A DNA stretch of 64,000 nucleotides from Clostridiaceae bacterium (GCA_012838235.1 DUPQ01000070.1:13454-77453), one strand, 5' to 3'; positions 1,260 through 33,476 are shown, counted from the stretch's first letter. A program made the numbers and translations. Notes: generated by a model not told the origin, from the letters alone.

Positions 1260-2474
1260 TTATCTTACCGGTGCTTTGGAATAAACAGTTAAATAGATAA
1301 TGTCTTTTGTTCTGAAACTTGTTTTCTCAATCGGTACACAGCTGTTTTTAACCCGACCCGGATCATCATACAATATTTCATATTGTCCTTTTGAATTAAT
1401 TCGGTATCCTATTGCTACCATTGCGTGCGTTCGTGTTCCATTCTTAAACTGAACAAAAACACCGCCATGATCTCTGTCTTTTTCATTCAAATATTGGATG
1501 ATTCTTAGGATTTTGTCATCATCGGACTTTCCTTCTACTTTTTCCGAGTTGTTTTTCTTAACTACTACTTTAAATCCCAACTGCTTTGAGTACTTATTAT
1601 TATAGTAATCAAAAACACGTCCTCTGTATAGATATGTGGTATTTCCATTTGCTTTATAGGTTTCATTCGGATTAGTCTCAAAACCTAAGTTGGACAGAAT
1701 CATACAACTACTTGTTATGTAGCATCCGGTACGTTTTAATTGGGGATAATTGATTTGGCTGAAATATGTGTGATTGGGTAGGATATATGCTTTTTGAACT
1801 TTTATCACACGTGTTGCCTTGTAGCCTTCCGCACAAGCCTCCACAACAATGGAGTCTCCCATTTTTGCAGAGGGTTTTACTATAATCACTCCTGTGCTTG
1901 TGTCTATAGTGACATTATTACCGTTACTTTTTGCAATTCTCCATTTGACAGGTGCTTTGTAAGGCGAGTTGGATTTAACAACTGCGGTTAATGTAGTTTT
2001 TTGACCTACAATAATTGTGCTTGGTCCTTTTATTTCAATACTTTTGATTGAAATGGGAGCGACCGTAAACTTAACGGTGTTTCCTTTCTGTCTGCGAGTA
2101 CCGTCGGAATTATGTGCTGTTACACTGATTGAATAGTTGCATCCGGGAGTCAAATCCGTAATCTCATATGTGCATTTCGGTGCATATATTTTTTTATTCA
2201 TATTAACACATATTTTTTTTGTAAGATTTAACAGTTCAATTGTGTAGTAAGCAGCTTTCCTGTCTGCTTGCCATTTTACCACTACTTTATCCGAAGGCTG
2301 ATATCTTTGCTTATCGGTAGAACATTTTACTGCAGGGGATATTTGTGCCGTTACTTTGGAATAGACCTTATTAGAGTTCCAACGGGGCATAATTGCTGCA
2401 TCTACATTCAGGTAGGATAAGCATAATACAAGAACTATCAGTGTGCAGATTGTTTGTTTAATAATCGTTTTCAT
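1260..2474 (-). CDS. Secreted multidomain protein: signal peptide, FN3-like, Big_2-like Ig domain, C-terminal papain/C39-like cysteine peptidase
   Basis: ORF track, 404 aa. Signal peptide MKTIIKQTICTLIVLVLCLSYLNVDAA. FN3-like KVVVKWQADRKAAYYTIELL...YSISVTAHNSDG. Big_2-like IKSIEIKGPSTIIVGQKTTLTAVV...VTIDTSTGVIIVKP. C-terminal peptidase-like region with candidate Cys (RTGCYITSSCMIL) and His (THAMVAIGY). AGGAGG lies 7 nt upstream of the ATG. Confidence 0.75.
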   Translation of the reverse strand: MKTIIKQTICTLIVLVLCLSYLNVDAAIMPRWNSNKVYSKVTAQISPAVKCSTDKQRYQPSDKVVVKWQADRKAAYYTIELLNLTKKICVNMNKKIYAPKCTYEITDLTPGCNYSISVTAHNSDGTRRQKGNTVKFTVAPISIKSIEIKGPSTIIVGQKTTLTAVVKSNSPYKAPVKWRIAKSNGNNVTIDTSTGVIIVKPSAKMGDSIVVEACAEGYKATRVIKVQKAYILPNHTYFSQINYPQLKRTGCYITSSCMILSNLGFETNPNETYKANGNTTYLYRGRVFDYYNNKYSKQLGFKVVVKKNNSEKVEGKSDDDKILRIIQYLNEKDRDHGGVFVQFKNGTRTHAMVAIGYRINSKGQYEILYDDPGRVKNSCVPIEKTSFRTKDIIYLTVYSKAPVR

Positions 2475-2568
2475 TTTCTTTCCTCCTTGTAATTTTAAAA
2501 ATATTTTGTCTTGAAGAACTGTTGCTCCGTATCTTCACATTTAGGATAGCATAAATAGTTTGTCAGCT

Positions 2569-2590
2569 TCCTAACAAAATCCTAACAAAA
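2569..2590 (-). promoter_or_regulatory. Tandem 11-bp direct repeat (TTTTGTTAGGA x2 read on the minus strand), candidate wHTH operator upstream of the peptidase gene
   Basis: The plus strand reads TCCTAACAAAATCCTAACAAAA. Its reverse complement is identical over 22 bp to 6512-6533. It lies 95 bp upstream of the ATG at 2474 and is co-oriented with that gene. Confidence 0.65.
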
Positions 2591-2682
2591 TCAACTCATC
2601 AATTATTGGTCAGATCAAAGAAACGACATCTAAAAGAGAGTTTGATTATATGGATGTGAAATAGCGTTTTTTATTATAAAAT

Positions 2683-3687
2683 CTACGAAAATCGGTTAAC
2701 AAAGTCATATATTGCATCAATAGTAGCCTTAATTTCCTGTAAATAATTAACCGGTTGGTTCAGTAACTTCGGGGTACTTGCAGAATCCTGATTTGGAATA
2801 TATCCGACTGTGTCAAAATTGACTGTGTGTTTTATTGCAAATGACAAAGCTCGAACTTGCTGATATGGACAATAAATCTGTGATGTGCAATTAATGATAT
2901 TTGAATGCGGTAGGACATTTAATCGTTTGAAAAAAAAGTCAAAGCAATCTACACTGTTGGCTCTTCTTATATCCGGTTCCGAAGAAGGAGCGGAAATTGC
3001 ATAAATATCATTGTTTCCATATTTTTCTGAGTACTTTCTTATTGTCCAATTTAAGTTATAGTTATCTTTCCTTTCCGTTTCTTCCGTATATGAACGAATG
3101 TCAAATGTAGTTGATAAACCCGATGCTATTGCTTCAAATTCAAAAACGGCATCTTTGGCAGGTGTGTTGCTATAAAAAGTAATCTCCTGTTCCGATAAAG
3201 GTCTCATTGTGGATAATGCAATAACTTTTGATTCAAAGTTATGAGTGTCTATAAGGGTTTTTGCTAATTCGCATCTTTTAAAGTTGGATATTAGAGCTCC
3301 ACCGAGAGGAAGAATGTAGTCGGGAGAATTTAGTACTGTGTCAGTAATTCCGATAAGTCCTAATTTTACCGATGCTTCAAGTACTAATTTACTGTATTTT
3401 TCCACTATCTCGTCATTCTTCAACAACCACCTTGCGGCTTCACCCTCATTGGTCATCGCTTCGGATTGTTTTTTGCGAAAATCCCATACAGCTACAAAAC
3501 TTTTCAGCCATTTTAAGTAATCATAATACGGTAAAGAAAGCGGCGGATTCTCGTTGTTATTATAAATCTTAATCAACTCAACTAACTCAGGTGTCATTAA
3601 CCAGTTATAAAATTCGTGGTGAATAATAGTTTTTATTCGTTCAGTTTCAGATATATCCGAAGGTGGGCAAAGGATACGATTATTCAT
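2683..3687 (-). CDS. Hypothetical protein, weakly DUF218/YdcF-like; translationally coupled to the STAND regulator
   Basis: ORF track, 334 aa. The start overlaps the stop of the upstream STAND gene by 8 nt. Only weak motif resemblance to DUF218 (YILPLGGA, IRRANSVDCFDFF, INCTSQIYCPYQQVRAL). The family assignment is tentative. Confidence 0.55.
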   Translation of the reverse strand: MNNRILCPPSDISETERIKTIIHHEFYNWLMTPELVELIKIYNNNENPPLSLPYYDYLKWLKSFVAVWDFRKKQSEAMTNEGEAARWLLKNDEIVEKYSKLVLEASVKLGLIGITDTVLNSPDYILPLGGALISNFKRCELAKTLIDTHNFESKVIALSTMRPLSEQEITFYSNTPAKDAVFEFEAIASGLSTTFDIRSYTEETERKDNYNLNWTIRKYSEKYGNNDIYAISAPSSEPDIRRANSVDCFDFFFKRLNVLPHSNIINCTSQIYCPYQQVRALSFAIKHTVNFDTVGYIPNQDSASTPKLLNQPVNYLQEIKATIDAIYDFVNRFS

Positions 3688-6289
3688 TACTACTTGTTTC
3701 CCTTATTTTAATCATACTCATTTCAGTCACTTTATCAATCATATCATAACAAATGGAAATAAACGACATATCAATACCGGGAATGGATGCTGCAACATCA
3801 ATAGTTTCAGTAATATTGGTCAATATACTCTTATCTACAATATTTCTGTTTTCTAAAATGGAAAGTAAATCTCTTGTTTTTCCTATACTGTCTTCAACTT
3901 CTTTTGTAAAAACTCCTACATCATGCATGTAAATAATACCTGCTTTAATTTTATCGGAAAAAAACGCAAGAGAATCCTTTATGCTTTCAAAAGGAGGAGT
4001 GACATCCTTTTTTTGCTCGCAAAGGTCAAAGTATAAATTTGTTAACATAATACCTGCACCTATAAGTCTGTTATTGGATATTATTGTTTCAATATGTTGA
4101 GCGGTATTTACTTTTTCAAAGATTGATGCGGATATCAGCTGGTTTTCATATGACAGCTTAAGATAGTTGTATTTTTCCTCATCCATACAGGACCTGGATA
4201 TATGAAAATAGTCGGATCCGATGTTTCTATAGGCAGTTGCCAGCAGATTCAAATTTACACTGTTAGGTTCAGATTGTACCAATGCTTCCCTGTATACTTT
4301 GGTTTTTTTATGATAGTCTAAAGCTTTAATATAATCCCTGCTTGCATAATGGTATGCTCCTAAATTGCCATTTATCACTGTAAGTAATCTATCACATTTA
4401 TTACTTATACTCTCCGGCTGGTTTAATTTGTTTTTTATACTTTCTGTTATTTGTTCCGCACAGCTTATTGCTTTGTATGCAATGGAAAGTCTGTCTTTTG
4501 CACTTGTATACTGTAGGACCGCATAACCGGCTTGATTCAAGCAACTTGCCTTTTCCAACTTATCATCTTCACTTAGAGCATCCATATCAAGCGAATCAAG
4601 CAACTCGATAGCATGTTTTCCGTATTTATACCCTAGCTGATTATTTGTAATAATACGATACACATTGGCTATACATGCTGTCAGTTTTGCATAAGATAAT
4701 GGTATTTGTCCGATTTTTTTTAATCCCGAATACAATGAGGTGGCAAGGGTTAAATTATTCGTTAAATCGGAGTCATAGGTGGCATTATCAATAATGTCGG
4801 TAATGTAAGAGACATATTTTTCTATATAGTTGAAGTCAAATCTATCTATTTTGGTTAATATTATCTCTCTGATAAACGGATGAATGGATATAGTTCCGTA
4901 ATGATTAAATGCATAATAACCGTTAAGCAGTTTATCAAATGCCGCTTTTAGTTGCTCTCTGTTTTCCATATCAAAAGAATTATCAAAGAAAGTATCATAG
5001 TTAAATCCGCTTATCGGTAATAAGGCTAAATTATACAATAGCTGCAGATCAATATCCGTATCGGTGATTCCGGAAATTTTGAATAAGCTGTAATAAAGGT
5101 TAATAATATTATCTTTTTTGTGCTCACCATCTTTAAATACGGAAACTGTGTCGTCGAGACTTTTTGTATTATCTGATGCAAGGGCTACAATGATATCATA
5201 CGGATCTTTTATCTGAGATAACTTTGCAACAAGAGTAACTAAATATGTGTTTCTCATCAATCGGTTATCTATTAAGTCGGTGATTGATTCAATAAAATCA
5301 TGGTACTCTCTATCGTGCTTTTGCATAAGATACTCTGCAATTTTTTTTGCAATGATATCCTGTGCTATATCGGAATCCTTTTCTTTTATATCAAACATGA
5401 TTTTAAAGAATAACTGTACTAGAATATCCATCTCAAGCGGCTTTATTTCCGTTTGCTCTATTGCATAACAATTCGACAAATTAGTTTTAGAAGTCATTAA
5501 AATGTGACATCCTGTATTGATTAAATCCATATAACACTCGGATTTGTCGGACAACTCGGATAAATCCTGATTATTTGAATAATCAATGTTGTCTATAATT
5601 AACAGGGAAGGTTTTTCTAATCCTTTAAGCAAGGATATGATAACCTTATAACGGTTATCTCTTTTGTTCAGTGCATTACACGGTAGAGAAATTATTGTAT
5701 CCTTTAAACCGCTATCTGAATAAGTTGTGAATATTATGTTTTTATAACCGTCTGTTATACATGAGTTTGCATATTCTTTTGCCAATTCCGTTTTTCCCAT
5801 ACCTCTCTCGCCGGATATGGCATGGACAGGACAACGTACAAAAGCTTCTTTATGCAACTTCTGTATCATGTTTTTTCTGTTTTCATAGAAAGGGCAGTTA
5901 TAGAAAGGAGTTATAGTATTATCGTTTTTATGACTGTATGAAGGCTTAAGCGAAGGAAGAGGAAAAGAATCGGTGAGTCGGTATCCTTTGTCATCTGTTT
6001 CAATACATCTTGAAAGGATACTATTGTTCCTAAGTTGAGAAATCAATCTTTGTATTTGTACTAAATTGTTATCACATCTACGAGGATCATATTCATATCC
6101 GAATAATTTCATATGTATATCATTTATACTTACAGTATGATTTAGATTTTGAACAAGAAGGGACAATGTATCCATATGTCTACGACTGAACTTTTTTTGT
6201 TCTCCGTTCTCGACAACACATTTGCCGTCAAAATCAATATAACAATTCTCATTTATATCATGTTTTCCTCTAGATTCTTTATTGCTCAT
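3680..6289 (-). CDS. STAND NTPase regulator: N-terminal OmpR/PhoB-type winged helix, NB-ARC-like P-loop, C-terminal TPR-like repeats (SARP/AfsR-like architecture)
   Basis: ORF track, 871 aa from TTG 6295. ATG at 6289 has GGAGGTG 8 nt upstream. wHTH: FSRRHMDTLSLLVQNLNHTVSINDIHMKLFGYEYDPRRCDNNLVQIQRLISQLRNN...DDKGYRLT. Walker A GERGMGKTELAKEYA. Walker B LLIIDNID. Long helical-repeat C-terminus (e.g. GAYHYASRDYIKALDYHKK). Confidence 0.85.
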   Translation of the reverse strand: MSNKESRGKHDINENCYIDFDGKCVVENGEQKKFSRRHMDTLSLLVQNLNHTVSINDIHMKLFGYEYDPRRCDNNLVQIQRLISQLRNNSILSRCIETDDKGYRLTDSFPLPSLKPSYSHKNDNTITPFYNCPFYENRKNMIQKLHKEAFVRCPVHAISGERGMGKTELAKEYANSCITDGYKNIIFTTYSDSGLKDTIISLPCNALNKRDNRYKVIISLLKGLEKPSLLIIDNIDYSNNQDLSELSDKSECYMDLINTGCHILMTSKTNLSNCYAIEQTEIKPLEMDILVQLFFKIMFDIKEKDSDIAQDIIAKKIAEYLMQKHDREYHDFIESITDLIDNRLMRNTYLVTLVAKLSQIKDPYDIIVALASDNTKSLDDTVSVFKDGEHKKDNIINLYYSLFKISGITDTDIDLQLLYNLALLPISGFNYDTFFDNSFDMENREQLKAAFDKLLNGYYAFNHYGTISIHPFIREIILTKIDRFDFNYIEKYVSYITDIIDNATYDSDLTNNLTLATSLYSGLKKIGQIPLSYAKLTACIANVYRIITNNQLGYKYGKHAIELLDSLDMDALSEDDKLEKASCLNQAGYAVLQYTSAKDRLSIAYKAISCAEQITESIKNKLNQPESISNKCDRLLTVINGNLGAYHYASRDYIKALDYHKKTKVYREALVQSEPNSVNLNLLATAYRNIGSDYFHISRSCMDEEKYNYLKLSYENQLISASIFEKVNTAQHIETIISNNRLIGAGIMLTNLYFDLCEQKKDVTPPFESIKDSLAFFSDKIKAGIIYMHDVGVFTKEVEDSIGKTRDLLSILENRNIVDKSILTNITETIDVAASIPGIDMSFISICYDMIDKVTEMSMIKIRETSSNE

Positions 6290-6511
6290 CTTCAAATCAC
6301 CTCCACTACATAAAAAAGCAAAATATACACATTTTCGAAAGCAGTTGCTAAATTCATAAGTAGCTAATTATTCTGGGTGGGTATATACATTGGAACAGCA
6401 TATCAATGTTCACGAAATACAACTGTGTTTAATTATACTCGATATAAGCTGAGCTAACAACAGATTTGTTGCAATGATTGAACACAGTAGCACAATATTC
6501 AGGATACCTTA

Positions 6512-6533
6512 TTTTGTTAGGATTTTGTTAGGA
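6512..6533 (+). promoter_or_regulatory. Tandem 11-bp direct repeat TTTTGTTAGGA x2, candidate wHTH operator upstream of the 13-gene operon
   Basis: 22 bp identical to the reverse complement of 2569-2590. Lies 93 bp upstream of the ClpP ATG (6626) in the divergent intergenic region shared with the STAND regulator. Confidence 0.65.
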
Positions 6534-6625
6534 ACCTTGTGTAAAAAATGTGGCAAAATTCAATTAGACAATCACTTGGTAAATTATGGGTGGATAACAT
6601 CATATTTTACGGAAAGGAATAAAAA

Positions 6626-7219
6626 ATGAATGAAAGATTTATACCCACAATAATAACGAATATTAACGGTGTTGAACAGATAACCGATTCAGTCAATATT
6701 GACTTTATGAGAAGAAGAATATATTTGGTCGGTGAAATAGACAGTACATCCTCTACAGCGATGCTGTCAATGCTCGGATATTTATCAAACAAGTCAAGTG
6801 ATGATATAGAATTATTCATAAACAGCCCCGGAGGAGCTATACAGGACGGTCTTGCCATATATGACACAATCAAATACGGGGTTAATTGTGATGTTGTAAC
6901 AGTTGCGTACGGAAGAGCCGCAAGTATGGGAGCTTTTCTTTTGGCTTGCGGGAAATCAGGGAAGCGCTATGCTTTACCCAATGCCGAAATAATGATTCAT
7001 CAACCTTTGGGTAGGGTTCAAGGGCAGGCAACGGATATAATATTGGCTGCTGATAATATTAAAAAGACCAAAGAACATATCGCATCTATTTTTGCCGGAA
7101 AGTGTAATAAGCCGGTAGATATACTGCTCAAAGATATGGAGAGAGATTATGTTATGACAAGTAAGGAAGCATTGTCATACGGATTGATTGACAATATAGG
7201 GTTTCCTAAATCGGTATAG
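6626..7219 (+). CDS. clpP: ClpP-family serine protease (paralogue, first gene of the operon)
   Basis: 197 aa. IYLVGEID...FINSPGGAIQDGLAIYDTI...GRAASMGAFLLACG (Ser), EIMIHQPLG (His), ERDYVMTSKEALSYGLID (Asp). GGAAAGGA RBS present. Confidence 0.9.
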   Translation: MNERFIPTIITNINGVEQITDSVNIDFMRRRIYLVGEIDSTSSTAMLSMLGYLSNKSSDDIELFINSPGGAIQDGLAIYDTIKYGVNCDVVTVAYGRAASMGAFLLACGKSGKRYALPNAEIMIHQPLGRVQGQATDIILAADNIKKTKEHIASIFAGKCNKPVDILLKDMERDYVMTSKEALSYGLIDNIGFPKSV

Positions 7220-7235
7220 AGAGGGGGTGAAAAAA

Positions 7236-7985
7236 ATGAGGGAGACATTGCTCTACGGCCATGAAGAAATAAAGAAAGCAATAAATGAAATATGCGTGAA
7301 CAGCAAAGCATATAGTATCGGAAGAGTCCGACCGAGCAACTATATTATCCATCTTGATAGGGGTAACGGTCGTACAACTCTTGCAAGATATATTACCGAG
7401 AAGTTTTATAAACACAGTATTATAAAGTTTAGTAGCAAAGACTTGTTTTTGGAAATTGATTTTGACGGTACTTTGAAACAGCTTCAAGAGTCTTTTGGTT
7501 ATATCAGTTTAGCAGCTTGTTATGCAAATAGTTATGAAGGGGTTCTGTTTTTTGGTATTGATTCATTAGGAGATTATATACATGAAACTCAAGTGGAATT
7601 ATTTTTGGATAATATTGCAAAAGTCAGTGAAACAGCAACATTGATTTTTTATGTTCCCGAGAATCCGTCTAGAAGCATCAGTCAACTGATAGATAAGATT
7701 CGTGATGTATTGAAAGACACTGTTCTAATAGAAAAAAGCGTATACACTGCAACTGAATTGACCTTAATAGTTGAGTCGATGCTAGAAAAGAGGGGAATTG
7801 AAATTGATCAAAAAGCTCAATTTCATGAACAATTAGTTAATCTGATTGCACATATGGAACTTAAAACAATTGATGATGTAAAAGAATTATCAAAAAGAAT
7901 AATACTCTTAACGGATTATAGCTCATTAATATCGAGAGTTGGCAGTTCTCAGTTGAGAAAAATGAGACATGATGTTTTGTCTTGA
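7236..7985 (+). CDS. Degenerate SpoVK/CbxX/EccA-like AAA+ domain protein (probable pseudo-ATPase)
   Basis: The track ORF starts at GTG 7227. ATG 7236 follows GAGGGGG by 8 nt. HLDRGNGRTTLARYI resembles the Walker A GNPGTGKTTVAR but has Lys replaced by Arg. GVLFFGIDSL sits where Walker B GVLFIDEA would be, so the DE is lost. Confidence 0.65.
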   Translation: MRETLLYGHEEIKKAINEICVNSKAYSIGRVRPSNYIIHLDRGNGRTTLARYITEKFYKHSIIKFSSKDLFLEIDFDGTLKQLQESFGYISLAACYANSYEGVLFFGIDSLGDYIHETQVELFLDNIAKVSETATLIFYVPENPSRSISQLIDKIRDVLKDTVLIEKSVYTATELTLIVESMLEKRGIEIDQKAQFHEQLVNLIAHMELKTIDDVKELSKRIILLTDYSSLISRVGSSQLRKMRHDVLS

Positions 7986-8003
7986 TGTTTGGAGGAAAAT
8001 AAG

Positions 8004-9863
8004 ATGATGAACCGCTATTCAAATGAGTACGAGATAGAAAGGAGTACAAGCCGGTTGGATAAAGAATCCTCTACCTGTGGTCCTGTTGTATATTATAACG
8101 GTAAGCCATATGTATATGATGGAGAAAGCCATGTTCTCTATATCGGTAAAAGTGGTAAGGGTAAAAGTAGATGCGGAACAATCTCTACAGTGCTATCAGT
8201 GCAGCAAGCCGGTGAATCCTACATTGTATCCGATCCTAAAGGGGAGATATACAATGCAACTTATTGTTTTCTGAAAGATAAATATATTGTTCATGTAATT
8301 GATTTCAGAAATATTTTAGAAAGTGAAACTTGGAATCCTTTAGAACTTGCATACAAACTATATTCTACCGGTGATAAGCATAAGATGGAAATAGCCTATG
8401 AATTGATTGTAGAATTGGCATTTTTATTATTTGCGGATTCTGTAGTTGCTGATCCGTTTTGGGCTCAAAGTGCACGTAGCTTATTTATCGGTATTGTCTA
8501 TTTACTTTTCAGTTTTGCTCCTGCTGATCAAATAAATATGAAGTCGGTATATATGCTTGCTGTTTTAGGAGAACAAAGGTTAGGGTCAACAAACTATTTG
8601 CGTCATCTTATTGATTTGTTGCCTAAAGACACAACTGCATCGATGAACCTGAATTCGTATATGGCTGCGCCTAATGAAACAAGAGGAAGTATAAAATGTG
8701 TTTTCTTAGATGGTATGGCAATATTTGCAAGAAGCGAAGGTCTTATTGAAATGTTGAGTTCTGATGGCTTGAACATTGCAGAAATGAATGGTGAAAAACC
8801 GGTTGCAATATATATTATTTTGCCGGATGAATCAATAATCTATGATAGGCTTTGCGGTGTGTTGATTAGTCAGTTAATGAAACACTATATGCGTCTTGCG
8901 CAAGATGAATACAAAGGCAGATTGCCGATACGTATGCATCTGATACTGGAGGAGCTTGCAAGTGTGGGAAGTTCCATATCCGGGTTGCCGGACTTAATGG
9001 CTACATCTCGAAGCAGAAATATTAAAATATATATTGTGCTTCAGTCATTATCTCAGTTGGACGATTTATATGGAAAAAGTAATGCATCTACAATACTTGC
9101 CAATATCGGTATCATCATTGCCTTTAGTACTAACGATTGGAAGACCTTAGAGGAGTTATCACAAAAATGCGGAGATAAGGAAATAGATTTCGGTACAAGA
9201 ATAGTTACAACAAGCCTTATTAAGCCGGAGCAGCTTGCTGGTATGGATGTAAAGCAAGCATTGGTAATGATAGACGGAAGTGTCAAGTATATAACTAAAT
9301 TACCGTTCTATGATGAAATATTTGACTTTAGCGAGTGGAAAGAACCGGCGCAATTAAAACATAAAAAAGAAAATAATCCGAAATACTTTGATATTACTAA
9401 ATATGTTCAAGAGGGTGGTGAAACTGATTTAAGAGTACCGATGATGTTGCAGAATGAAGATATATTCAGAACTTTCAACAAGCCCAAAATTAATGAAGAA
9501 ATTAAACTTCAAGAGTTAATAACGAAGATTGATAAAGCAATTGAGAGATTAGAGGGAACAGAAGAAATAGAGGAAATAGAGGAATTAAAAGAAATAGAGA
9601 AATTAATGGAATTAGATATGCAGGAGATGATAGATGAAGAGGATATTCCTGATAGCTATGATATAATACTCTATCGTTGCAATAGTTGTGAAAATGTTAT
9701 TGCTTTGGTTGTTGCCAAAATACTGGATGTAAGTTACAATGAAGCAGTCAATAAATTAAAAGAAGAGCCTCAGATATTTAAATTTGAAACAAGAATTGAA
9801 GCTGAAAGAGCAAAAGCTGATATACGCAATGTGGGTGGGGATGTTTATAATCTATTCGATTAA
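8004..9863 (+). CDS. Soluble VirD4/TraG-like (type IV coupling protein family) P-loop ATPase with acidic linker and C-terminal ribosomal L7/L12-CTD-like domain
   Basis: Track start is TTG 7989. ATG 8004 follows GGAGGA. Walker A YIGKSGKGKSRCG. SDPKGEIY, DPFWAQSARSLF, LILEELASVG (Walker B region), IVLQSLSQLDDLYG. No N-terminal TM helices. Acidic EEIEEIEELKEIEKLMELDMQEMIDEEDIP linker. C-terminus YDIILYRCNSCENVIALVVAKILDVSYNEAVNKLKEEPQIFKFETRIEAERAKADIRNVGGDV. Confidence 0.8.
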   Translation: MMNRYSNEYEIERSTSRLDKESSTCGPVVYYNGKPYVYDGESHVLYIGKSGKGKSRCGTISTVLSVQQAGESYIVSDPKGEIYNATYCFLKDKYIVHVIDFRNILESETWNPLELAYKLYSTGDKHKMEIAYELIVELAFLLFADSVVADPFWAQSARSLFIGIVYLLFSFAPADQINMKSVYMLAVLGEQRLGSTNYLRHLIDLLPKDTTASMNLNSYMAAPNETRGSIKCVFLDGMAIFARSEGLIEMLSSDGLNIAEMNGEKPVAIYIILPDESIIYDRLCGVLISQLMKHYMRLAQDEYKGRLPIRMHLILEELASVGSSISGLPDLMATSRSRNIKIYIVLQSLSQLDDLYGKSNASTILANIGIIIAFSTNDWKTLEELSQKCGDKEIDFGTRIVTTSLIKPEQLAGMDVKQALVMIDGSVKYITKLPFYDEIFDFSEWKEPAQLKHKKENNPKYFDITKYVQEGGETDLRVPMMLQNEDIFRTFNKPKINEEIKLQELITKIDKAIERLEGTEEIEEIEELKEIEKLMELDMQEMIDEEDIPDSYDIILYRCNSCENVIALVVAKILDVSYNEAVNKLKEEPQIFKFETRIEAERAKADIRNVGGDVYNLFD

Positions 9864-9901
9864 TAATAATAAGGATAATTGTATAAAGGAGGGAATGGTT
9901 T

Positions 9902-11215
9902 ATGAGTGGCTTTACTATTGGAGAATATGAATTAGCTAGAAGGGAGAAAGAGTGGTTAAGACTGATAGAGGAAGAAAACCGCAAAAGATTAAAAGAGGCT
10001 ACCGACAGATACAGGTCATGTTTGGCTAATGTTAAATCGGTTAAACACAGAATATCTGCTCATATGGTGGAACAGGAGAAAACACTGGAAGCATATTCTT
10101 ATATGAAGCAACCGTTTGACGAGCTTAAAAGTATAAAAAAGAAATATTGCGAGAAAATTGAACGACTTTGTACTGGCAATATCCCTTCCGAGGTTGTTGA
10201 GATAAACGAGTTATCTGACAAGTTGGAGGAGGATATAGGGGTAATAAGTGCGGAGTTTTTCAAAAAAACGGAAAAAGTGGAAAAAGCAATCAGAGAATAT
10301 ATGAGAATACATGCGGACAATATAGCTACTAAGCAAGTATCAGTTGAATTGGACAGGTTTTCAAAGAGAATTAAAGAAGCTGTCAGAGTGGATTATGCCG
10401 ACTTTATTGAACCTTCTTCAAATAAGACGGAGGAGGATTTGGTAAGCAAGTTTGCTGCTGTATTGCAATTAGCGGAAGAGTGCTTCAATATTTCACATAT
10501 GGATTCCGTCAAATCCAATGTAATTAACATCGTAACAACTCTGAACTCCGTTTCCGATAAGACTTATGATGAAAAAAAGGTTGTGTTGGATCAAATTTAC
10601 AGTAAATTAGTTTCGATCAAGAAGGAGGCAATAGCAAAGAGTAAAAGGTTTGATGCACTGTACACTCAATACCTGGCGGAATGTATTTTAGCTGGCAGTA
10701 AGCCGATGGTTGATTACAGTTTTACATCACTCGAAGCTTTGTCTGACGAGCTTAAATCGGTTAAGAAGAGAGCGGAAGAAAAAGCGGAACACAAATATAT
10801 AACCGAACAGATAAATGATGTTATGCGTAGTATGGGCTACAAATCCATAGACAGTCAGCTTCTTGAGTTACCCAAGGTCGGAACAAGACAGTTGTTCAGA
10901 ATAAAGGAAAATGTTGCACTGAATGTATATGCTTCCGAGAACAACGAAGTGAATACACAGCTTATTATTATCGGGGACAGTAAGAATATAACCGAAGAAG
11001 ATTACGAACAGTTTGAAGAAGAACAAAGAAGCTTCTGCAAGCGCAATCCGGAGTTAGTAAGAAGATTATCGGAAAGAGGTATTTTGATTAAGAACGGGAA
11101 GATAAAAGAGCAAGACAAAAATGATTTGGTTAAAGAAAAAATAGTGACCGATGCGAAGAGTGAAAATAGAAAAAGTAGAAAGAGAAAAATGGAAATAAGG
11201 ATGGAGAGGGAATAA
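9902..11215 (+). CDS. Coiled-coil protein, unknown function
   Basis: 437 aa, AAGGAGGG RBS. Charged heptad-like sequence over most of its length, Lys/Arg-rich tail. No family recognised. Confidence 0.7.
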   Translation: MSGFTIGEYELARREKEWLRLIEEENRKRLKEATDRYRSCLANVKSVKHRISAHMVEQEKTLEAYSYMKQPFDELKSIKKKYCEKIERLCTGNIPSEVVEINELSDKLEEDIGVISAEFFKKTEKVEKAIREYMRIHADNIATKQVSVELDRFSKRIKEAVRVDYADFIEPSSNKTEEDLVSKFAAVLQLAEECFNISHMDSVKSNVINIVTTLNSVSDKTYDEKKVVLDQIYSKLVSIKKEAIAKSKRFDALYTQYLAECILAGSKPMVDYSFTSLEALSDELKSVKKRAEEKAEHKYITEQINDVMRSMGYKSIDSQLLELPKVGTRQLFRIKENVALNVYASENNEVNTQLIIIGDSKNITEEDYEQFEEEQRSFCKRNPELVRRLSERGILIKNGKIKEQDKNDLVKEKIVTDAKSENRKSRKRKMEIRMERE

Positions 11216-11797
11216 ATGAAAGCATGTGATATATGCGGTGCGTCAAATGATGATAATTCAAGGATATGTAATGTTTGTGGTGGAAGGTTTGCAGAAAAAT
11301 CTGTTTCTTATGTTTACTATGTAAGGTGTAACACATGCAATGCCGATATTTTAGTGCAGAATGAAAAACAGGATAAGGTTTTCTGCAAAACCTGTGATAA
11401 AGAACTTGTGATAGACGGAATAGTACATTCGGTATCCAGGAGAGAAACGATTGCAGAAGAAGAACTATATGTAGAACCTACATTGATTTTGGAAGAGGTA
11501 AAATCCAAGCATAAATTCATCATCCCCAAAGAAGGCGGAGTATTTGGCAGATACGGACAATTTGATCCACACTTTTTTCAAGATGAACGTTTTTCCAGGG
11601 TATCAAGGCGTCATATTGTAATAAGTTATGACAGTGACAGTAATAAATGGTCGGTAAAACCCAACAGTGAGACCAATGACACATATATAGACGGAAGGAC
11701 ATTTAAACCGTCAATGAACAGTATTGCCGTTGAAATCAGAGATGGTCAGATGATAGGGCTTGCCGACATATATTTTAAAGTTATAATAAACGGGTAG
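11216..11797 (+). CDS. Double zinc-ribbon plus FHA domain protein
   Basis: 193 aa. CDIC...CNVC and CNTC...CKTC pairs. FHA signature FGRYGQ (GR), SRRHIVI (SxxH), NDTYIDG, and a C-terminal beta-strand region. The start abuts the upstream stop. Confidence 0.85.
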   Translation: MKACDICGASNDDNSRICNVCGGRFAEKSVSYVYYVRCNTCNADILVQNEKQDKVFCKTCDKELVIDGIVHSVSRRETIAEEELYVEPTLILEEVKSKHKFIIPKEGGVFGRYGQFDPHFFQDERFSRVSRRHIVISYDSDSNKWSVKPNSETNDTYIDGRTFKPSMNSIAVEIRDGQMIGLADIYFKVIING

Positions 11798-11802
11798 TAC
11801 AG

Positions 11803-12384
11803 ATGAATGTTGACAGAATCGCTTTTCCAATCAAATCACTCGGACCGGGTAACCGGATAGCAATTTGGACTGCAGGATGTAAAAAGCATTGCTATAATTG
11901 CATAACGCCAGAATTGTGGGAGCCCGATCCGATGAAAGAAATATCCGTACAAAGCCTTGTGCATATTATCACAACTGTTGTTTCCGATAATGGTATTACT
12001 GTTGACGGTATTACCATAACGGGAGGAGACCCTTTTGAACAGCTGGAGGACCTGTTGAACTTACTTCCTTATGTAAAAAATATGGTAAAAGACATTTTGG
12101 TTTATACAGGTTATGAGTACTCGCAATTTAAGAAAACTCTTAGCGAGTGGAAAATAGAATGCATAGAAAGTAATATTTCAGTTTTAATTGATGGGCAATA
12201 TGTAGATAAATTGAACGATAACAAAAGTGCATTGATAGGCTCAACCAATCAGAATATTATATTTTTTGACGAGAAACTTAAATCTAAATATTCGGAATAT
12301 ATGGAAAAAGGCAGAAGCATAGAGAATATAATACACGGGAAAAAGGTTTTTTCTGTAGGTATACATAATAGAGAGGAGAAATAA
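11803..12384 (+). CDS. NrdG-like radical-SAM activating enzyme (4Fe-4S CX3CX2C)
   Basis: 193 aa. The N-terminus MNVDRIAFPIKSLGPGNRIAIWTAGCKKHCYNCITPELW matches the NrdG/PflA-type activase pattern (SxxDGPGxR..F..GCxxxCxxCxN). GGDPFEQ SAM-binding motif. Confidence 0.8.
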   Translation: MNVDRIAFPIKSLGPGNRIAIWTAGCKKHCYNCITPELWEPDPMKEISVQSLVHIITTVVSDNGITVDGITITGGDPFEQLEDLLNLLPYVKNMVKDILVYTGYEYSQFKKTLSEWKIECIESNISVLIDGQYVDKLNDNKSALIGSTNQNIIFFDEKLKSKYSEYMEKGRSIENIIHGKKVFSVGIHNREEK

Positions 12385-12385
12385 A

Positions 12386-14251
12386 TTGGATAATCAATCA
12401 GTAAAGCCCAAATGGCAAAAGGAGATAGAGCTTTTCAGAGGTATAAAAAGTGCATATATAATTGAAGGCAATATAAATGACAACTATCCTATCTGCGAAG
12501 AGGGAGGTAGTGTATATTTTGCTAACCTTGATAAGACAATAATAAAGTTGTTTGATAAGGATGTATATGATTTCTGTTTCTGTAATCCTGCGGTAGGGTT
12601 ATATGATCCTCTTAACAGAAGTTTACAAAAAGAAACCGTTGAAGCATTGATAGGCAAGTTTAATAATAATGAATTATGTTCCCGTTATGATGATATATTC
12701 GGTCATGTTTATATGATTAGAGAAATAGGTTTACTTGCCGATATTATTAAAAAAGCATTGGTAGGAACAACAAACAATAACGAAGGAGAAAGAAAACCCG
12801 TTGCAGTCGTAGTAAATTTCGCATCAAAGTTTTTTTCGGACGTATCCAATATAAATAATGACGAGATGAAGGCATTGTTGAACATATTATTAGCTTCATT
12901 GAATTCCAGATATTACCGGAACAATGTCAATACATTGATACTGGTTGTGGAGAAATTCAATGACCTTCCCACATGGTTCTACTACAATAATCCCAAGGTA
13001 AAGACCGTTACTATACCCAATCCCGACAGGTTGGTCAGAACTGTGTATATCGAGAAAGAGTTCACCGAGTTTAACAGTATAGAAAAGGCGAAGGATGTAA
13101 TTGATAAGCTTGTAAGCGCCACGGAAGGATTAAAACTGATTGAGCTTAGAGAATTAAGACAACTTCACATGAAGAATAATGATGACATATCCAATATTAA
13201 TGAAACGGTGTCTGCATATAAATATGGTATTAAGGATAATTTATGGCAAAGTTTCAATAAAGGAACAATAGAGAGACTGGAAAGATATCTTAAAGAAAGA
13301 ATAATCGGTCAGGACTATGCATTGAATAAAGCAATAACGATAATAAAGCGCGCGGTGATGGGAATGACAGGTTTGCAACATTCATCTGCAGATAATAAAC
13401 CTCGCGGTGTACTGTTCTTAGCCGGTCCTACCGGTACCGGAAAAACGGAGCTGGCAAAAGCTATAACTGTAATCCTTTTCGGTGATGAGAGAAACTGTAT
13501 AAGATTTGACATGGCTGAATTCAGTGAACCACATTCGGATCAGAAACTAATCGGTGCACCTCCTGGTTATGTTGGTTATGAAGCGGGAGGGCAGCTGACT
13601 AACGAAGTGAGAAAAAGACCATATGCAACGGTACTATTTGATGAAATGGATAAAGCATGTCCGACAATTATGGATAAATTCTTAGAAATACTGGAAGATG
13701 GCAGGTTGACAGACGGACAAGGCAATACGGTATATTTCTCAGGGACACTGATAATTTTTACCAGTAACTACGGATATACGGAAATGAGAATTGATGAAAA
13801 CGGTAACGAGAAAAGAGAATGGATTATTAAACCCGGCGAGTTACCCTATGAAGAGGTAAGGAAAAAAGTGGTTGATTCTATTAAAAAATCCAAAGCGATG
13901 AAACCGGAAATAATAAACAGGATAGGGGAACACAACATAATTGTATTTGATTTTATCAGCAAAGAGGCCGCAGAAAAGATAATTAAAAAACAGATAAAAC
14001 AAGTGAACGAAGACTGCAAGAAGCAAAAGGGAATCTCAATGCATGTTTTAGATGAATGCTATGAGTTATTAAATAAGAAATCTCGGTCCGATGATGTGAT
14101 GATTTATGGAGGCAGGGGTATAGGAACATTGGTAGAAAATGAATACATCAACCCTCTTTCCAATTATTTGTTTGATAATGATTTTACCCATGAAGTAAAA
14201 ATAACTGCATTTGTAAAAGGGGATAAACTGGACTTCAGAGAGGAGGTATAG
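12386..14251 (+). CDS. Clp/Hsp100-family AAA+ ATPase (ClpB/ClpV-like D2) with degenerate N-terminal D1-like half
   Basis: 621 aa, TTG start 7 nt after GAGAGGAG. D2: IIGQDYALNKAI...GVLFLAGPTGTGKTELAKA...LIGAPPGYVGYEAGGQLTNEVRKRPYATVLFDEMDKA...LEDGRLTDGQGNTVYFSGTLIIFTSN...YGGRGIGTLVE (sensor 2). The N-terminal half has IIEGNINDNY at the Walker A position and VVVNFASKF at the Walker B position. Confidence 0.85.
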   Translation: MDNQSVKPKWQKEIELFRGIKSAYIIEGNINDNYPICEEGGSVYFANLDKTIIKLFDKDVYDFCFCNPAVGLYDPLNRSLQKETVEALIGKFNNNELCSRYDDIFGHVYMIREIGLLADIIKKALVGTTNNNEGERKPVAVVVNFASKFFSDVSNINNDEMKALLNILLASLNSRYYRNNVNTLILVVEKFNDLPTWFYYNNPKVKTVTIPNPDRLVRTVYIEKEFTEFNSIEKAKDVIDKLVSATEGLKLIELRELRQLHMKNNDDISNINETVSAYKYGIKDNLWQSFNKGTIERLERYLKERIIGQDYALNKAITIIKRAVMGMTGLQHSSADNKPRGVLFLAGPTGTGKTELAKAITVILFGDERNCIRFDMAEFSEPHSDQKLIGAPPGYVGYEAGGQLTNEVRKRPYATVLFDEMDKACPTIMDKFLEILEDGRLTDGQGNTVYFSGTLIIFTSNYGYTEMRIDENGNEKREWIIKPGELPYEEVRKKVVDSIKKSKAMKPEIINRIGEHNIIVFDFISKEAAEKIIKKQIKQVNEDCKKQKGISMHVLDECYELLNKKSRSDDVMIYGGRGIGTLVENEYINPLSNYLFDNDFTHEVKITAFVKGDKLDFREEV

Positions 14252-14255
14252 TCAA

Positions 14256-14975
14256 GTGTTACATGTTGTTGCTATTACCGATAAAGGTCCGAGTAATGAG
14301 AAAAATGACGACTGTATATTAGTTAATAATACTGTTATAACCGAAGGATCGTTTTATGGAGAATACCGTTCCTACCTGCTTGCATCGGTTTTTGACGGTG
14401 TCGGAGGCGAGCATTACGGAGACGAGGCGGCTAAAATTGCAGCGACAGGTTTTTCAACACTTGATGTTAAAGACAGATTAAGTGAACATGTTATAGTTGA
14501 TAGGATAAAGGCGGTGAATAGGGATATTCTTGATGCACAGAGGACCGATGTTTATCACAGCAAAATGGCAACTACAATAGCAGGGGTTTATATAAGTAAT
14601 GACAGCTTCATAGCCTTTAATGTCGGTGACAGTCGGGTGTATCGCTTAAGAGGCGAGTATATGTTGCAGATATCGAAAGATCATAGATATTCGGAAAAAG
14701 TTCACACAATATACCGATACTTAGGACACCCTACCGATTACCTACCGTATACTGATATGTTTGATAACTTGTTTTTTGACAATGACATTCTTGTTATTTG
14801 TACTGATGGTATCAGCGACTTTGTTTACAACAGTGTAATCAAGCGGGAACTTATGAAAGTTGAAGACAATTATTCTTTGACGGAATGTGCAGAGGAAATA
14901 ATGAATACTGCAATTAAGGAAGGGTGTAACGATAATTTAAGTATCATATTAATAAGGAAGTGCGAAAATGACTGA
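14256..14975 (+). CDS. PP2C-family Ser/Thr phosphatase
   Basis: 239 aa, GTG start after GAGGAGG. VFDGVGGEHYGDEAA, NVGDSRVY, CTDGISD, NDNLSIILI. Confidence 0.85.
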   Translation: MLHVVAITDKGPSNEKNDDCILVNNTVITEGSFYGEYRSYLLASVFDGVGGEHYGDEAAKIAATGFSTLDVKDRLSEHVIVDRIKAVNRDILDAQRTDVYHSKMATTIAGVYISNDSFIAFNVGDSRVYRLRGEYMLQISKDHRYSEKVHTIYRYLGHPTDYLPYTDMFDNLFFDNDILVICTDGISDFVYNSVIKRELMKVEDNYSLTECAEEIMNTAIKEGCNDNLSIILIRKCEND

Positions 14976-17139
14976 TTTAGAAGTGTCTAACTGTACTAAA
15001 AAAACAAGTAGTTTAATAAATACATTAAGTTATAACGGGCCGTCTACTCCGTTAATGACCGATGTGGAATTCAAGGGAAGAAACGGAAACACCTATAAGG
15101 TCTTGTCAGACGGGTTTATTCATCAAGGCGGAGAATCTGTTTTATACAAATGTATTTGTAATAATGAGGTTTATGTTGCAAAAATACTAAATTTTTCTGT
15201 TAGCTTGAGAAATGATGAACTAAGAGGACCTGTTTTAGATTTTTTAATAAGACATTCCGGTAAAGACTCACACCTCTTGCAACTACTTGATTACGGGACA
15301 ATCAGATATAATGACGGCAGATATGATGCGCTGAGATATATTGAAATATATCCGTTCTGCCCTAAAGGTGATTTGGGAAGATTAGGGAAAATTGATTATG
15401 ATACTTTGTGTGAAAAAGTTATACCTGCTATCAACACCGCTCTTAATACTTTGCACAATGCAAATCTGGTTCATAGAGATGTAAAACCCAATAATGTGTA
15501 TGAACTGGACGGCGAAATATATCTGGGGGATTTCGGACTCTTGACAAGCAGCATCATAGAAGATGGACATAGTAATGCACATGCATACACATTAACACAA
15601 AGAGGAACTGAGGGTTATATGGCTCCAGAAATATATAAAGGTTCTGTTTATAATATTTCCGATTACTATTCGTTCGGCCAGACCATTTCCACTTTATATC
15701 ATGGAAAACATATGTATGAACACCTTATGAATAATACCGACTATATAGCAAACAGAGACATAAATCTTTCTCTTCATCGGTGTATGATGGAGGGAATTTT
15801 ATATTTAAGTTTGGAAACAAAGCACAAGGAACTAGATAAATTACTCAGAGGCTTGTTGAAGTGCAATCATGAGTTAAGGTTCGGTTATGAGCATGTTTGC
15901 AGATGGCTTACCGGAGACAAGACTCTGACCGTACCGGAAGACAGAAACATAGATCAACTGAATCCGCCATTTATGATTAATGATGTCAAATGCAGAAACA
16001 TAGAAAGCATGGTTGAACAGCTATTATTAAACTGGGATATGGCAAAGGAATACTTATACGAGGGGATAATGAAAGACTTCTTCAGTGCTCAGAATACAGA
16101 GTTAAGTATGAAAGCACTGGAAATATCAAGAAAACAGGGAAATGAATTAGTTAATAATACCGGATTAAGTCAATTTATTCATTATTTAACGGAAGGGGAA
16201 GGGATATATTGGAAAGGAAGAAAATATAACGACCATGCGGAAATTTTCAGCGATTATACAGACAATCATAGTATTAATCCCGATGTCATAGAGTTGCTTT
16301 CCTCCGGTTTTTTATCCTGGAGAATGGAAGAACTGAATAAGAAAGATAATAAATATCAAAACCAAATTGAGCTTCTTAAGAGTATTGAAAAAGAATGTTT
16401 TTGCTATAGTTCAATAGGTTATCATTATGCAAGACACAAACTAAGAGGGGAAGAAATAAGTTATTCAGATTGCCAAAATGTTGCTGAATTAATAGATTAT
16501 TTTATTGAATCATTCGGAAAAACATATTTTACTGGAGAAACATGGTTGAGAGATGATAGGTTTTATGGATTTTTAATGGCATTAGGTCATGTTAAAATTG
16601 CAACTTCTTTATTCGAGGAAGTGAGATGGGCGCAACCTGCGAATGCCATAAGAGCATTATTCGGTACTTTAGAAGTTTTGATAGAAAGAGGAAACAGCAC
16701 TTCACTTCAAACTAAAAAAGAACTTTTAAACATCTACTTGTTATATGGTCCGCGGTCCTATCTCTGCTGGATAAAAGAGAATCTTAGTTGTTACGATTTT
16801 ATGGGTATGAACGCTTTTATTTTAAAAGAGAAAATTGAGGACATTAATTTGAGCAATAAAAAAAGTCTTGCAGATATCGATTCAGCATTTAATGAATTGG
16901 CCAAAAATCTTAATCAATTTAAGCTATACTTCTGTGACAATCCTATTCTATGTAAATTAGGGATTAGTAATAAGGAAGGGAATGATATTATTTATTCAAA
17001 AAGCCTTGACGGTTATTTTTTATCCGACTTCTATGGGAATAAAGTACCGGTCGGATTTTATAAGTATATTGATGCATACAGGAGTAAAAAGAAAATAGTT
17101 AAGAATTTAAATAACTCCGAAGACCTGTTTTCCTTCTAA
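14968..17139 (+). CDS. Hanks-type Ser/Thr protein kinase with about 430-aa uncharacterised C-terminal region
   Basis: 723 aa, overlaps the PP2C gene by 8 nt. VYVAKIL (Lys), HRDVKPNNV, LGDFGL, GTEGYMAPE. No motif recognised after about residue 300. Confidence 0.9.
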   Translation: MTDLEVSNCTKKTSSLINTLSYNGPSTPLMTDVEFKGRNGNTYKVLSDGFIHQGGESVLYKCICNNEVYVAKILNFSVSLRNDELRGPVLDFLIRHSGKDSHLLQLLDYGTIRYNDGRYDALRYIEIYPFCPKGDLGRLGKIDYDTLCEKVIPAINTALNTLHNANLVHRDVKPNNVYELDGEIYLGDFGLLTSSIIEDGHSNAHAYTLTQRGTEGYMAPEIYKGSVYNISDYYSFGQTISTLYHGKHMYEHLMNNTDYIANRDINLSLHRCMMEGILYLSLETKHKELDKLLRGLLKCNHELRFGYEHVCRWLTGDKTLTVPEDRNIDQLNPPFMINDVKCRNIESMVEQLLLNWDMAKEYLYEGIMKDFFSAQNTELSMKALEISRKQGNELVNNTGLSQFIHYLTEGEGIYWKGRKYNDHAEIFSDYTDNHSINPDVIELLSSGFLSWRMEELNKKDNKYQNQIELLKSIEKECFCYSSIGYHYARHKLRGEEISYSDCQNVAELIDYFIESFGKTYFTGETWLRDDRFYGFLMALGHVKIATSLFEEVRWAQPANAIRALFGTLEVLIERGNSTSLQTKKELLNIYLLYGPRSYLCWIKENLSCYDFMGMNAFILKEKIEDINLSNKKSLADIDSAFNELAKNLNQFKLYFCDNPILCKLGISNKEGNDIIYSKSLDGYFLSDFYGNKVPVGFYKYIDAYRSKKKIVKNLNNSEDLFSF

Positions 17140-17169
17140 ACTTGCAATATGTGAAGGGTAAATATTGAA

Positions 17170-18141: not shown

Positions 18142-18253
18142 TATCTTTCATTGCGGATTTAAACTGTTTATAGATAACATTGTTTTATATATTGGTATTA
18201 AAGAAGGGAAGAAAGCAACAGTTTGTTAAACAGTCGTGAAGGAGGAATATAAT

Positions 18254-19135: not shown

Positions 19136-19159
19136 GAACTGATATATGGAGGTATATAG

Positions 19160-20215: not shown

Positions 20216-20252
20216 TTTAAGTGGATAAAATAAATATATAAGGAGTCTTGTT

Positions 20253-33366: not shown

Positions 33367-33445
33367 ATGCAACGAATAGCATATATTTGCTTTAAAAGTG
33401 CAACGCAAATGCAACGAATAATTATTTGTTGCATATTTGTTGCAT
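33367..33445. repeat. Cluster of five ATGCAAC(G/A)A motifs (three direct, two inverted) in the promoter region of the downstream gene
   Basis: ATGCAACGAATA at 33367 and 33409, TGCAACGCAA at 33400, TTGTTGCAT at about 33426 and 33437. Confidence 0.5.
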
Positions 33446-33476
33446 TATTTATATAATACTTCATAGAAAGTGTCGC

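Follow-up and report, generated by a model that had tools for sequence, protein, structure and literature searches.

Two identical tandem 11-bp repeats flanking a STAND regulator gene in a Clostridiaceae genome are most likely its docking sites

Why should one and the same 22-bp sequence stand, at almost the same distance from the start codon, upstream of two transcription units that lie on either side of a single regulator gene? The question is raised by a 64,000-nucleotide stretch from a Clostridiaceae bacterium (GCA_012838235.1, DUPQ01000070.1:13454-77453), which was analysed at its full length and is here called the window. The 22-mer TTTTGTTAGGATTTTGTTAGGA is present in exactly two copies, each a tandem of two 11-bp units. 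Judged from sequence comparison, the two copies are most likely docking sites of the regulator encoded between them, and it is probable that this protein, a STAND ATPase with a predicted OmpR/PhoB-type winged helix, binds and activates through both. The argument turns on the following features.

6512-6533, plus strand: site 1, TTTTGTTAGGA x2, 93 nt 5' of the ClpP ATG (6626); identical 24-mer at 6511-6534
2569-2590, minus strand: site 2, the same 22-mer as site 1, 95 nt 5' of the peptidase ATG (2474); 24-mer at 2568-2591
3680-6289, minus strand: proposed regulator, 869 aa, with winged helix, STAND/NB-ARC-type ATPase and TPR-like repeats
6626-21260, plus strand: target 1, 13 tightly packed genes preceded by site 1
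1260-2474, minus strand: target 2, a secreted protein with signal peptide, fn3 and Peptidase_C39_2, sharing its strand with the regulator and partner genes

Both copies, first pointed out in an earlier reading of this DNA (the original prediction), were recovered on the same strands by exact search, and the gene calls of that reading (ClpP, the fn3/C39-type secreted peptidase, the 13-gene operon and the STAND regulator) agreed with those listed. Each copy is oriented toward its downstream gene and the start-codon distances are nearly equal, as had been claimed (6626-6533 = 93, 2569-2474 = 95). No third copy had been seen by eye, and a fuzzy search of the window allowing up to 3 mismatches found none either; the sole other near-match to the single 11-mer in the window is TTTTGTTAAGA at 26204. 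Matches to the 22-mer occurred in 0 of 100 dinucleotide-preserving shuffles, the chance expectation being none. When the two upstream regions were aligned, 24 nt were identical (A, the 22-mer, A), followed by N-C-T, and the flanks beyond were unrelated, which marks the 22-mer as a motif and not as a duplicated segment. Regulator gene and partner gene both lie between the two identical 24-mers, all within 4 kb. A further 6.3 kb past the window start, read in L001-L004, contained no extra copy, so that about 70 kb were covered in total. The locus is 99.99% identical in 6 independent contigs from metagenomes or metagenome-assembled genomes (MAGs), including the Clostridia MAG GCA_035371685.1. A full-text literature search for the motif returned primers only.

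The regulator is built of a winged helix at residues ~15-110, an ATPase with the motifs GERGMGKTE (P-loop) and LLIIDN (Walker B), both invariant in the family alignment, and TPR-like helical repeats at residues ~485-865. Its Pfam matches to NB-ARC, NACHT and AAA_22 are weak or below threshold, and those to several AAA families likewise. The AlphaFold model has a mean predicted local distance difference test (pLDDT) score of 78.7 and shows, after the winged helix, a P-loop ATPase and then ~380 residues of helical repeats. With Foldseek the best PDB match was 6mfv, a STAND protein with TPR (1e-10), followed by CED-4, TPR proteins and Avs4, with AVAST5 also among the matches. The protein is accordingly a STAND NTPase. 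A family profile made of the regulator and 7 homologues matched solved OmpR-family domains with its N-terminus, and the earlier claim of an OmpR-type domain at this end was upheld by the match to DrrD (E = 9e-7); SaeR, ArlR, YycF/WalR, RpaA and ToxR were also matched. A leave-one-out N-terminal profile gave the window protein 33.6 bits, and the homologues P0003, P0004, P0008, P0010 and P0015 have precomputed PF00486 annotations. The order of elements in the AlphaFold N-terminus (E16-18, E24-27, H36-47, H55-66, H69-85, short strands) is that of a winged helix, at a pLDDT of only 50-69. By these comparisons the N-terminus is predicted to be a winged helix of the OmpR/PhoB type.

The winged helix lies at the extreme N-terminus and no Response_reg match was found in the protein; lacking a receiver domain, it is not a two-component response regulator. 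Nor is it a Streptomyces antibiotic regulatory protein (SARP), since no BTAD was matched at E <= 0.01 and the winged helix is separated from the P-loop by ~35 mostly unstructured residues. The original prediction had invoked SARP/AfsR-type activators: the direct-repeat periodicity, with two 11-bp units at both sites, was confirmed, and the assignment of the protein to that type was not. It had also argued that this is the only regulator in the neighbourhood. No other winged-helix-profile match was indeed found among the open reading frames of the window, but the logic is weak, the 20-mer core of the repeat being common in other phyla. Both the regulator family and the 13-gene operon are uncharacterised.

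The main evidence for tying the 22-mer to the adjacent STAND protein, as its putative binder, is the presence of phased repeats in relatives of the regulator. A word-based search returned 8 clusters of relatives and an exhaustive search 89 representatives at E <= 1e-30; about 20 of the retrieved representatives have an N-terminal winged helix. A repeated search with the family alignment gave no new members, and a metagenome scan with this alignment gave only 5 distant kinase-STAND loci. In 11 relatives, the intergenic DNA 5' of the regulator gene was searched for any 8-mer, low-complexity words excepted, that recurs without mismatch at a spacing of 10-12 or 20-23 bp. Such a repeat was found in 6 of the 9 relatives with an intact winged helix:

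P0003 / L008: TTGTTGCAA x2, spacing 12 bp
P0004 / L130: TGTTGATT x2, spacing 11 bp
P0008 / L132: TCTTATTG x2, spacing 21 bp
P0010 / L141: (G/T)GTTGCAAT x3-4 (unit also written TGTTGCAAT), spacing 11 bp
P0007 / L009: TTCGACTGATT x3, spacing 11 and 10 bp
P0006 / L131: TCGACGGATT x3, spacing 11 bp

Shuffled regions contained such a repeat in 1-5% of cases each, and 10 of 255 window tiles of 250 bp did. At L008, L009, L131 and L132 the repeat upstream of the regulator gene is the only one of its kind in the locus. Under the same search, no phased repeat was found beside P0002, whose winged helix is degenerate (1.6 bits), or beside P0005, from which the domain is missing; in front of the P0005 gene stand a terminator and a plain promoter. 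P0002 (L007) is the closest relative (56% identical); GTTAGGA repeats were expected there, none was found, and the locus served as a negative control. P0003 and P0010 have similar recognition helices and the common core TGTTGCAA, the helix of P0004 is partly different and goes with TGTTGATT, and the window protein, more different still, goes with TGTTAGGA. The clade of P0006 and P0007 has the repeat core TCGAC; these two proteins are 62% identical, their repeat block has been retained, and a change from T to G is shared by both aligned units. In these alignments the repeat sequence co-varies with the predicted recognition helix across the family.

Downstream of the two window sites, candidate promoter elements were located as follows, together with sigma-70-like sites further upstream.

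6542-6547, plus strand: clpP -10 candidate A, TAAAAA, 8 nt 3' of the repeat, with SARP/pho-box-like geometry
6551-6559, plus strand: clpP extended -10 candidate B, TGgCAAAAT, 17 nt 3' of the repeat
2555-2560, minus strand: peptidase -10 candidate A, AACTAT, 8 nt 3' of the repeat
2543-2551, minus strand: peptidase extended -10 candidate B, TGcTATCCT, at the same offset as clpP candidate B
2702-2673, minus strand: sigma-70-like site upstream of the peptidase gene, TTGTTA-18-TATAAT, 10/12 matches, 83 nt upstream of site 2
6432-6460, minus strand: regulator promoter candidate, TTGTTA-17-TATAAT

A usable -35 is absent at both sites under either reading of the -10, as is expected for activator-dependent promoters. 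The spacing of option A equals the 8-bp rule of the SARPs (PMC10936776), these being candidate -10s only and option B, 12 nt more distant, an equally co-phased competitor. The offset shared by the two B candidates was found in 378 of 200000 shuffles in a post hoc test, and option B would set the repeat at about -33 to -54, normal for OmpR-family activators. At L141 the last repeat unit ends 4 nt 5' of a good -10 (TATATT), a geometry that reads as activator-type and is in line with option A. The promoter candidate of the regulator itself has 10/12 consensus matches and no tandem repeat, and transcription of the regulator gene seems to start from a conventional promoter of the sigma-70 type.

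The favoured mechanism may be depicted as follows: The ATPase/TPR part would sense a signal and bring protomers together first, whereupon one face of the DNA would be occupied by two winged helices, bound head-to-tail to the pair of 11-bp units. The bound domains would overlap or abut the poor -35 and bring in RNA polymerase at two promoters that face outward. One of these would drive the 13-gene ClpP/VirD4-like/FHA-kinase-phosphatase operon, and the other would boost the secreted peptidase gene. The peptidase would then be a functional part of the system. As a cis-element the 22-mer is conventional, an ordinary kind of control element, and the surprise lies in the architecture of the regulator and in its cargo.

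The closest known counterpart is AfsR, the "large SARP" of Streptomyces coelicolor, which like the window regulator combines an N-terminal OmpR-type domain with STAND and TPR parts. In SARP target promoters the direct repeats follow a rule of 11- or 22-bp spacing. The afs box, 22 bp long and located at a poor -35, consists of two direct repeats of 11 bp each, and 8 bp separate the 3' one from the -10 (PMC10936776); this 8-bp spacing can also be read at the window sites. AfsR is tied to Ser/Thr phosphorylation, and the target operon in the window encodes a kinase, a PP2C phosphatase and an FHA protein. The two systems differ in that the BTAD, which defines SARPs and makes most of their contacts with RNA polymerase, is absent from the window regulator. 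AfsR belongs to an actinomycete, whereas the window host is a low-GC Clostridia MAG; the window half-site is TGTTAGGA and not TCGAG-like, the target is no antibiotic cluster, and the window regulator has a conserved, translationally coupled partner protein. In MalT and GutR, too, a STAND ATPase with helical repeats as its sensor governs a DNA-binding domain and turns on the neighbouring operon. Their DNA-binding domain is a C-terminal LuxR-type helix-turn-helix, in contrast to the N-terminal OmpR-type winged helix considered here.

Among OmpR/PhoB response regulators, the pho box and the TGTTA repeats of ArcA have the same tandem direct-repeat arrangement. The sites of SaeR and WalR resemble the window sites in having half-sites 11 bp centre-to-centre, an A/T-rich linker, a TGTTA core and a position at or just upstream of the -35. 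These regulators have a receiver domain and aspartate phosphorylation, whereas the proposed binder has an ATPase/TPR module without a receiver. The SaeR site is GTTAA-N6-GTTAA (PMC5083920), and the half-site of the 22-mer is one base from the consensus of SaeR (PMC5083920) and of WalR (TGTWAH-N5-TGTWAH). As originally predicted, the repeats proved to be direct, in tandem and in helical phase, the type that OmpR/PhoB-type winged helices bind. By its letters the 22-mer belongs to the class of TGTTA half-sites in 11-bp phase used by many OmpR-family proteins and is not private to the window regulator; this class confirms the OmpR-family type of the putative binder.

How widespread the class is became evident from a scan of one genome per species with TTGTTAGGANNTTGTTAGGA. 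At least 119 stretches with this 20-mer were found in other phyla, against ~17 expected (an estimate for uniform base composition). Most matches listed have TT at the two free positions. The matches listed come mainly from Ignavibacteria and Bacteroidota, and also from Lentisphaeria, Desulfobacterales, Colwellia, Gastranaerophilales, Patescibacteria and others; none of those listed is from the source organism. Among them, the sites are intergenic with unrelated flanks, 12 have a third unit in phase, no homologue of the window regulator was found nearby, and the only homologue of an operon protein nearby is a radical-SAM protein (27% identity, L085). The 20-mer stands directly beside classical Response_reg + Trans_reg_C genes in Bdellovibrionales (L026:2069-2088) and Gastranaerophilales (L077:80-99 and L112:7973-7992), and elsewhere upstream of genes for a PHO4 phosphate transporter, a low-molecular-weight phosphatase, pfkB kinases and other proteins. 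Sites listed with PHO4 transporter or low-molecular-weight phosphatase genes are L065:4942-4961, L099:6693-6712 and L095:3389-3408, and some of the sites in other phyla may be pho-box-like. With 2 copies in ~70 kb that have unrelated flanks, and copies in other phyla that occupy promoter positions and likewise have unrelated flanks, the 22-mer is probably no mobile or dispersed repeat.

Several observations weigh against binding and activation by the STAND protein. The site class is generic across phyla and occurs with unrelated regulators, so that the sequence alone does not name the binder. The Trans_reg_C Pfam score of the single regulator sequence is 18.6 bits, below the cut-off of 26.2. 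P0015, P0014 and P0035, the remaining 3 of the 9 relatives with an intact winged helix, have 7-of-8 repeats only, which individually are not significant. The repeats of the relatives precede the regulator's own gene and not the cargo, whereas those of the window precede two neighbouring units; given this difference in position, the analogy holds only at the level that the family uses phased repeats, and the repeats that face their own regulator gene suggest autoregulation. The two co-phased -10 options make the promoter assignment ambiguous, and the sigma-70-like site 83 nt upstream of site 2 would place this site in a transcribed leader.

Some of these points lend themselves to another binder, a classical OmpR/PhoB response regulator (WalR-, SaeR-, PhoP- or ArcA-like) encoded elsewhere, in which case the STAND protein would act via other DNA or be no binder at all. 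The TGTTA-N6-TGTTA core is a generic OmpR-family arrangement, with one mismatch per half-site from SaeR and WalR, the exact 20-mer lies beside classical response-regulator genes and upstream of many unrelated genes in other phyla, and the winged helix of the window protein is weak by Pfam. The sites of global regulators usually vary between targets, however, whereas here two identical 24-mers bracket the sole winged-helix gene in ~70 kb, and in the STAND relatives the phased repeats change along with the recognition helix and are absent where the winged helix has been lost. We regard this alternative as rather unlikely. That the STAND protein binds the repeats as a repressor or roadblock, the real promoters being upstream (2702-2673 for the peptidase, or read-through) and the repeats part of a transcribed leader, is quite improbable in our judgement. 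It would accommodate the 10/12 sigma-70-like site upstream of site 2 and the 208-nt gap between the partner and peptidase genes, which contains site 2 and no terminator-like structure; at L008 and L130, moreover, a -10-like hexamer of the regulator gene is followed 7-10 nt later by the repeats, which there look like an autorepression operator. But no comparable upstream promoter was found for clpP, both window sites have co-phased -10-like elements downstream without a usable -35, the L141 geometry is activator-type, and among STAND transcription factors MalT and GutR are activators, as is AfsR (confirmed by PMC10936776).

It is very improbable that the two copies match by chance or remained, without function, from a short duplication, since no shuffle in 100 reproduced the match, identity stops sharply at the motif edges, orientation and start-codon distance agree, and the unit length is one helical turn. 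Other kinds of element were also considered and rejected. An alternative sigma-factor site of the extracytoplasmic function (ECF) type would have its -35 (GGAAC) at clpP alone, the peptidase site reading GGAAG, and would also leave the duplicated unit unexplained. The window contains no Rfam family and no tRNA, and an RNA element was discarded. As to an origin from a prophage or an integrative and conjugative element, the 22-mer has only 2 matches in viral contigs, both unrelated.

If the link between the 22-mer and the STAND protein holds, it gives a handle on an uncharacterised family in which a winged helix is fused straight to a STAND ATPase without a BTAD, with the site, the regulator and two promoters defined. 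The orphan 13-gene operon and the secreted peptidase would become one co-regulated unit in an abundant anaerobic-digester Clostridium, and the logic of AfsR, where a sensor ATPase drives a domain that binds tandem repeats, would reach beyond the actinomycetes. For the family, an 11-bp-phased repeat beside the regulator gene offers a rule for finding operators.

The partner gene lies between the regulator and site 2.

2683-3687, minus strand: partner gene, 334 aa, precomputed annotation Rv3785_N, overlapping the regulator stop by 8 nt

This gene, translationally coupled to the regulator, stays beside homologous regulators and exceeds them in conservation, with 79% identity vs 56% at L007 and 48% vs 33% at L008 (window 2683-3687; L007:12648-13673; L008:3906-4928; L140:2464-3435). 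It is retained even where the winged helix is lost, and no relative of the partner protein with a solved structure was found. The 13-gene operon encodes, in order, ClpP, a 252-aa protein of unknown function, a VirD4/TraG-like ATPase near the CD1115 family and under its cut-off, an orphan protein of 437 aa, a Zn-ribbon+FHA protein, an NrdG-like radical SAM protein, a ClpX/ClpB-like AAA_2 protein, PP2C, a Ser/Thr kinase, two unknown proteins and two PRiA4_ORF3 proteins. Its 3' end is followed by a 165-nt gap with a promoter-like site of its own and then by GrpB-NUDIX and GNAT genes. The search for homologues of the 437-aa protein returned nothing besides itself, and no recognisable orthologue of the operon was found elsewhere. 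PADLOC gave weak generic ATPase matches (mad8, PDC-M37B, DolB) to 2 of 10 proteins and none to the regulator or its partner, and a known defence system was rejected, there being no PADLOC or NCBIfam match to one.

The N-terminal module of the family is interchangeable, since a winged helix, a kinase or an unassigned region is found on related ATPase-repeat bodies. In the close relative P0011 and at L133:3134-5962 and L134:2882-5821 a protein kinase domain takes the place of the winged helix, and in other relatives the N-terminal regions are 150-350 aa long and without known family. A swappable N-terminal module, variable cargo and a coupled partner of higher conservation than the regulator are hallmarks of NLR-like conflict systems. 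On these grounds the family could be one of NLR-like STAND sensors with interchangeable N-terminal output, in which a ligand from an invader or from stress would lead to oligomers that align winged helices on 11-bp repeats and activate a variable set of cargo genes; such a conflict system would be inducible and have transcription as its output. This broader proposal we consider unlikely as it stands. Avs and other NLR-like STAND conflict proteins have the same ATPase-plus-repeat scaffold (Foldseek Avs4, AVAST5), but their output is a direct toxic effector, whereas that of the window regulator would be transcription. The cargo would here be the unprecedented ClpP/VirD4-like/ClpX-like/radical-SAM/FHA-kinase-phosphatase operon and the secreted peptidase.

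Some further features of the relatives' loci were recorded. At L007:1-10000 the upstream neighbours are those of the window locus (PHP, AAA_14/DUF4143), whereas the cargo differs and consists of a Peptidase_C11 protein, small proteins and a 1037-aa secreted protein; the winged helix of the regulator has decayed there. In the clade of P0003, P0004, P0008 and P0010 a conserved gene of ~290 aa without Pfam family is divergent from the regulator gene (L141:4920-5837, L008:320-1201, L130:129-971, L132:3-395), at the position of the ClpP operon in the window. At L009:9675-9775 and L131:3385-3485 a block of ~90 nt by a divergent small-gene operon is almost identical, the regulators being 62% identical, and may be a structured leader.

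The window contains other repeats of similar form. At 33370-33450 there are 5 copies of GTTGCAT/ATGCAAC, 2 of them as tandem 11-bp units (TATTTGTTGCA x2) and 3 in the opposite orientation; TATAAT comes next, and the gene downstream (33426-34394) encodes an HATPase_c_4 domain. This cluster shares its core with the repeats beside P0003 (L008) and P0010 (L141), and no second winged-helix protein is present in the window. A single TTTGTTGCAAT, the unit type of P0003 and P0010, lies at 6465-6475 in the intergenic region between the regulator gene and clpP. The 14-nt ATTAGACAATCACT at 6563-6576 is identical to the start of the TAGACAA repeat by the relative P0014 (L144:4954-4975), with a chance of ~4e-4 (a rough estimate, before correction for multiple looks). 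Both TTTGTTGCAAT and ATTAGACAATCACT may be ancestral operator relics, extra half-sites or coincidence.

Finally, in Ignavibacteria and Bacteroidota the TTGTTAGGATTTTGTTAGGA repeat was found 50-350 nt upstream of genes for large proteins with signal peptides, at several sites per genome (L022:2668-2687, L042:6912-6931, L015:4633-4652, L036:4557-4576, L104:1471-1490 and L127:2509-2528 are examples; loci L012-L129). We know of no description of a secretion-cargo regulon with such repeats, and a full-text search for the core motif gave primers only. From their positions these sites look like a secretion-cargo regulon under a putative OmpR-type regulator. A type IX secretion C-terminal sorting domain is present in 6 of the 7 downstream genes tested (Ignavibacteria), and at 15 Ignavibacteria sites the distance from the repeat to the start of a TAnnTTTG box is exactly 8 nt.

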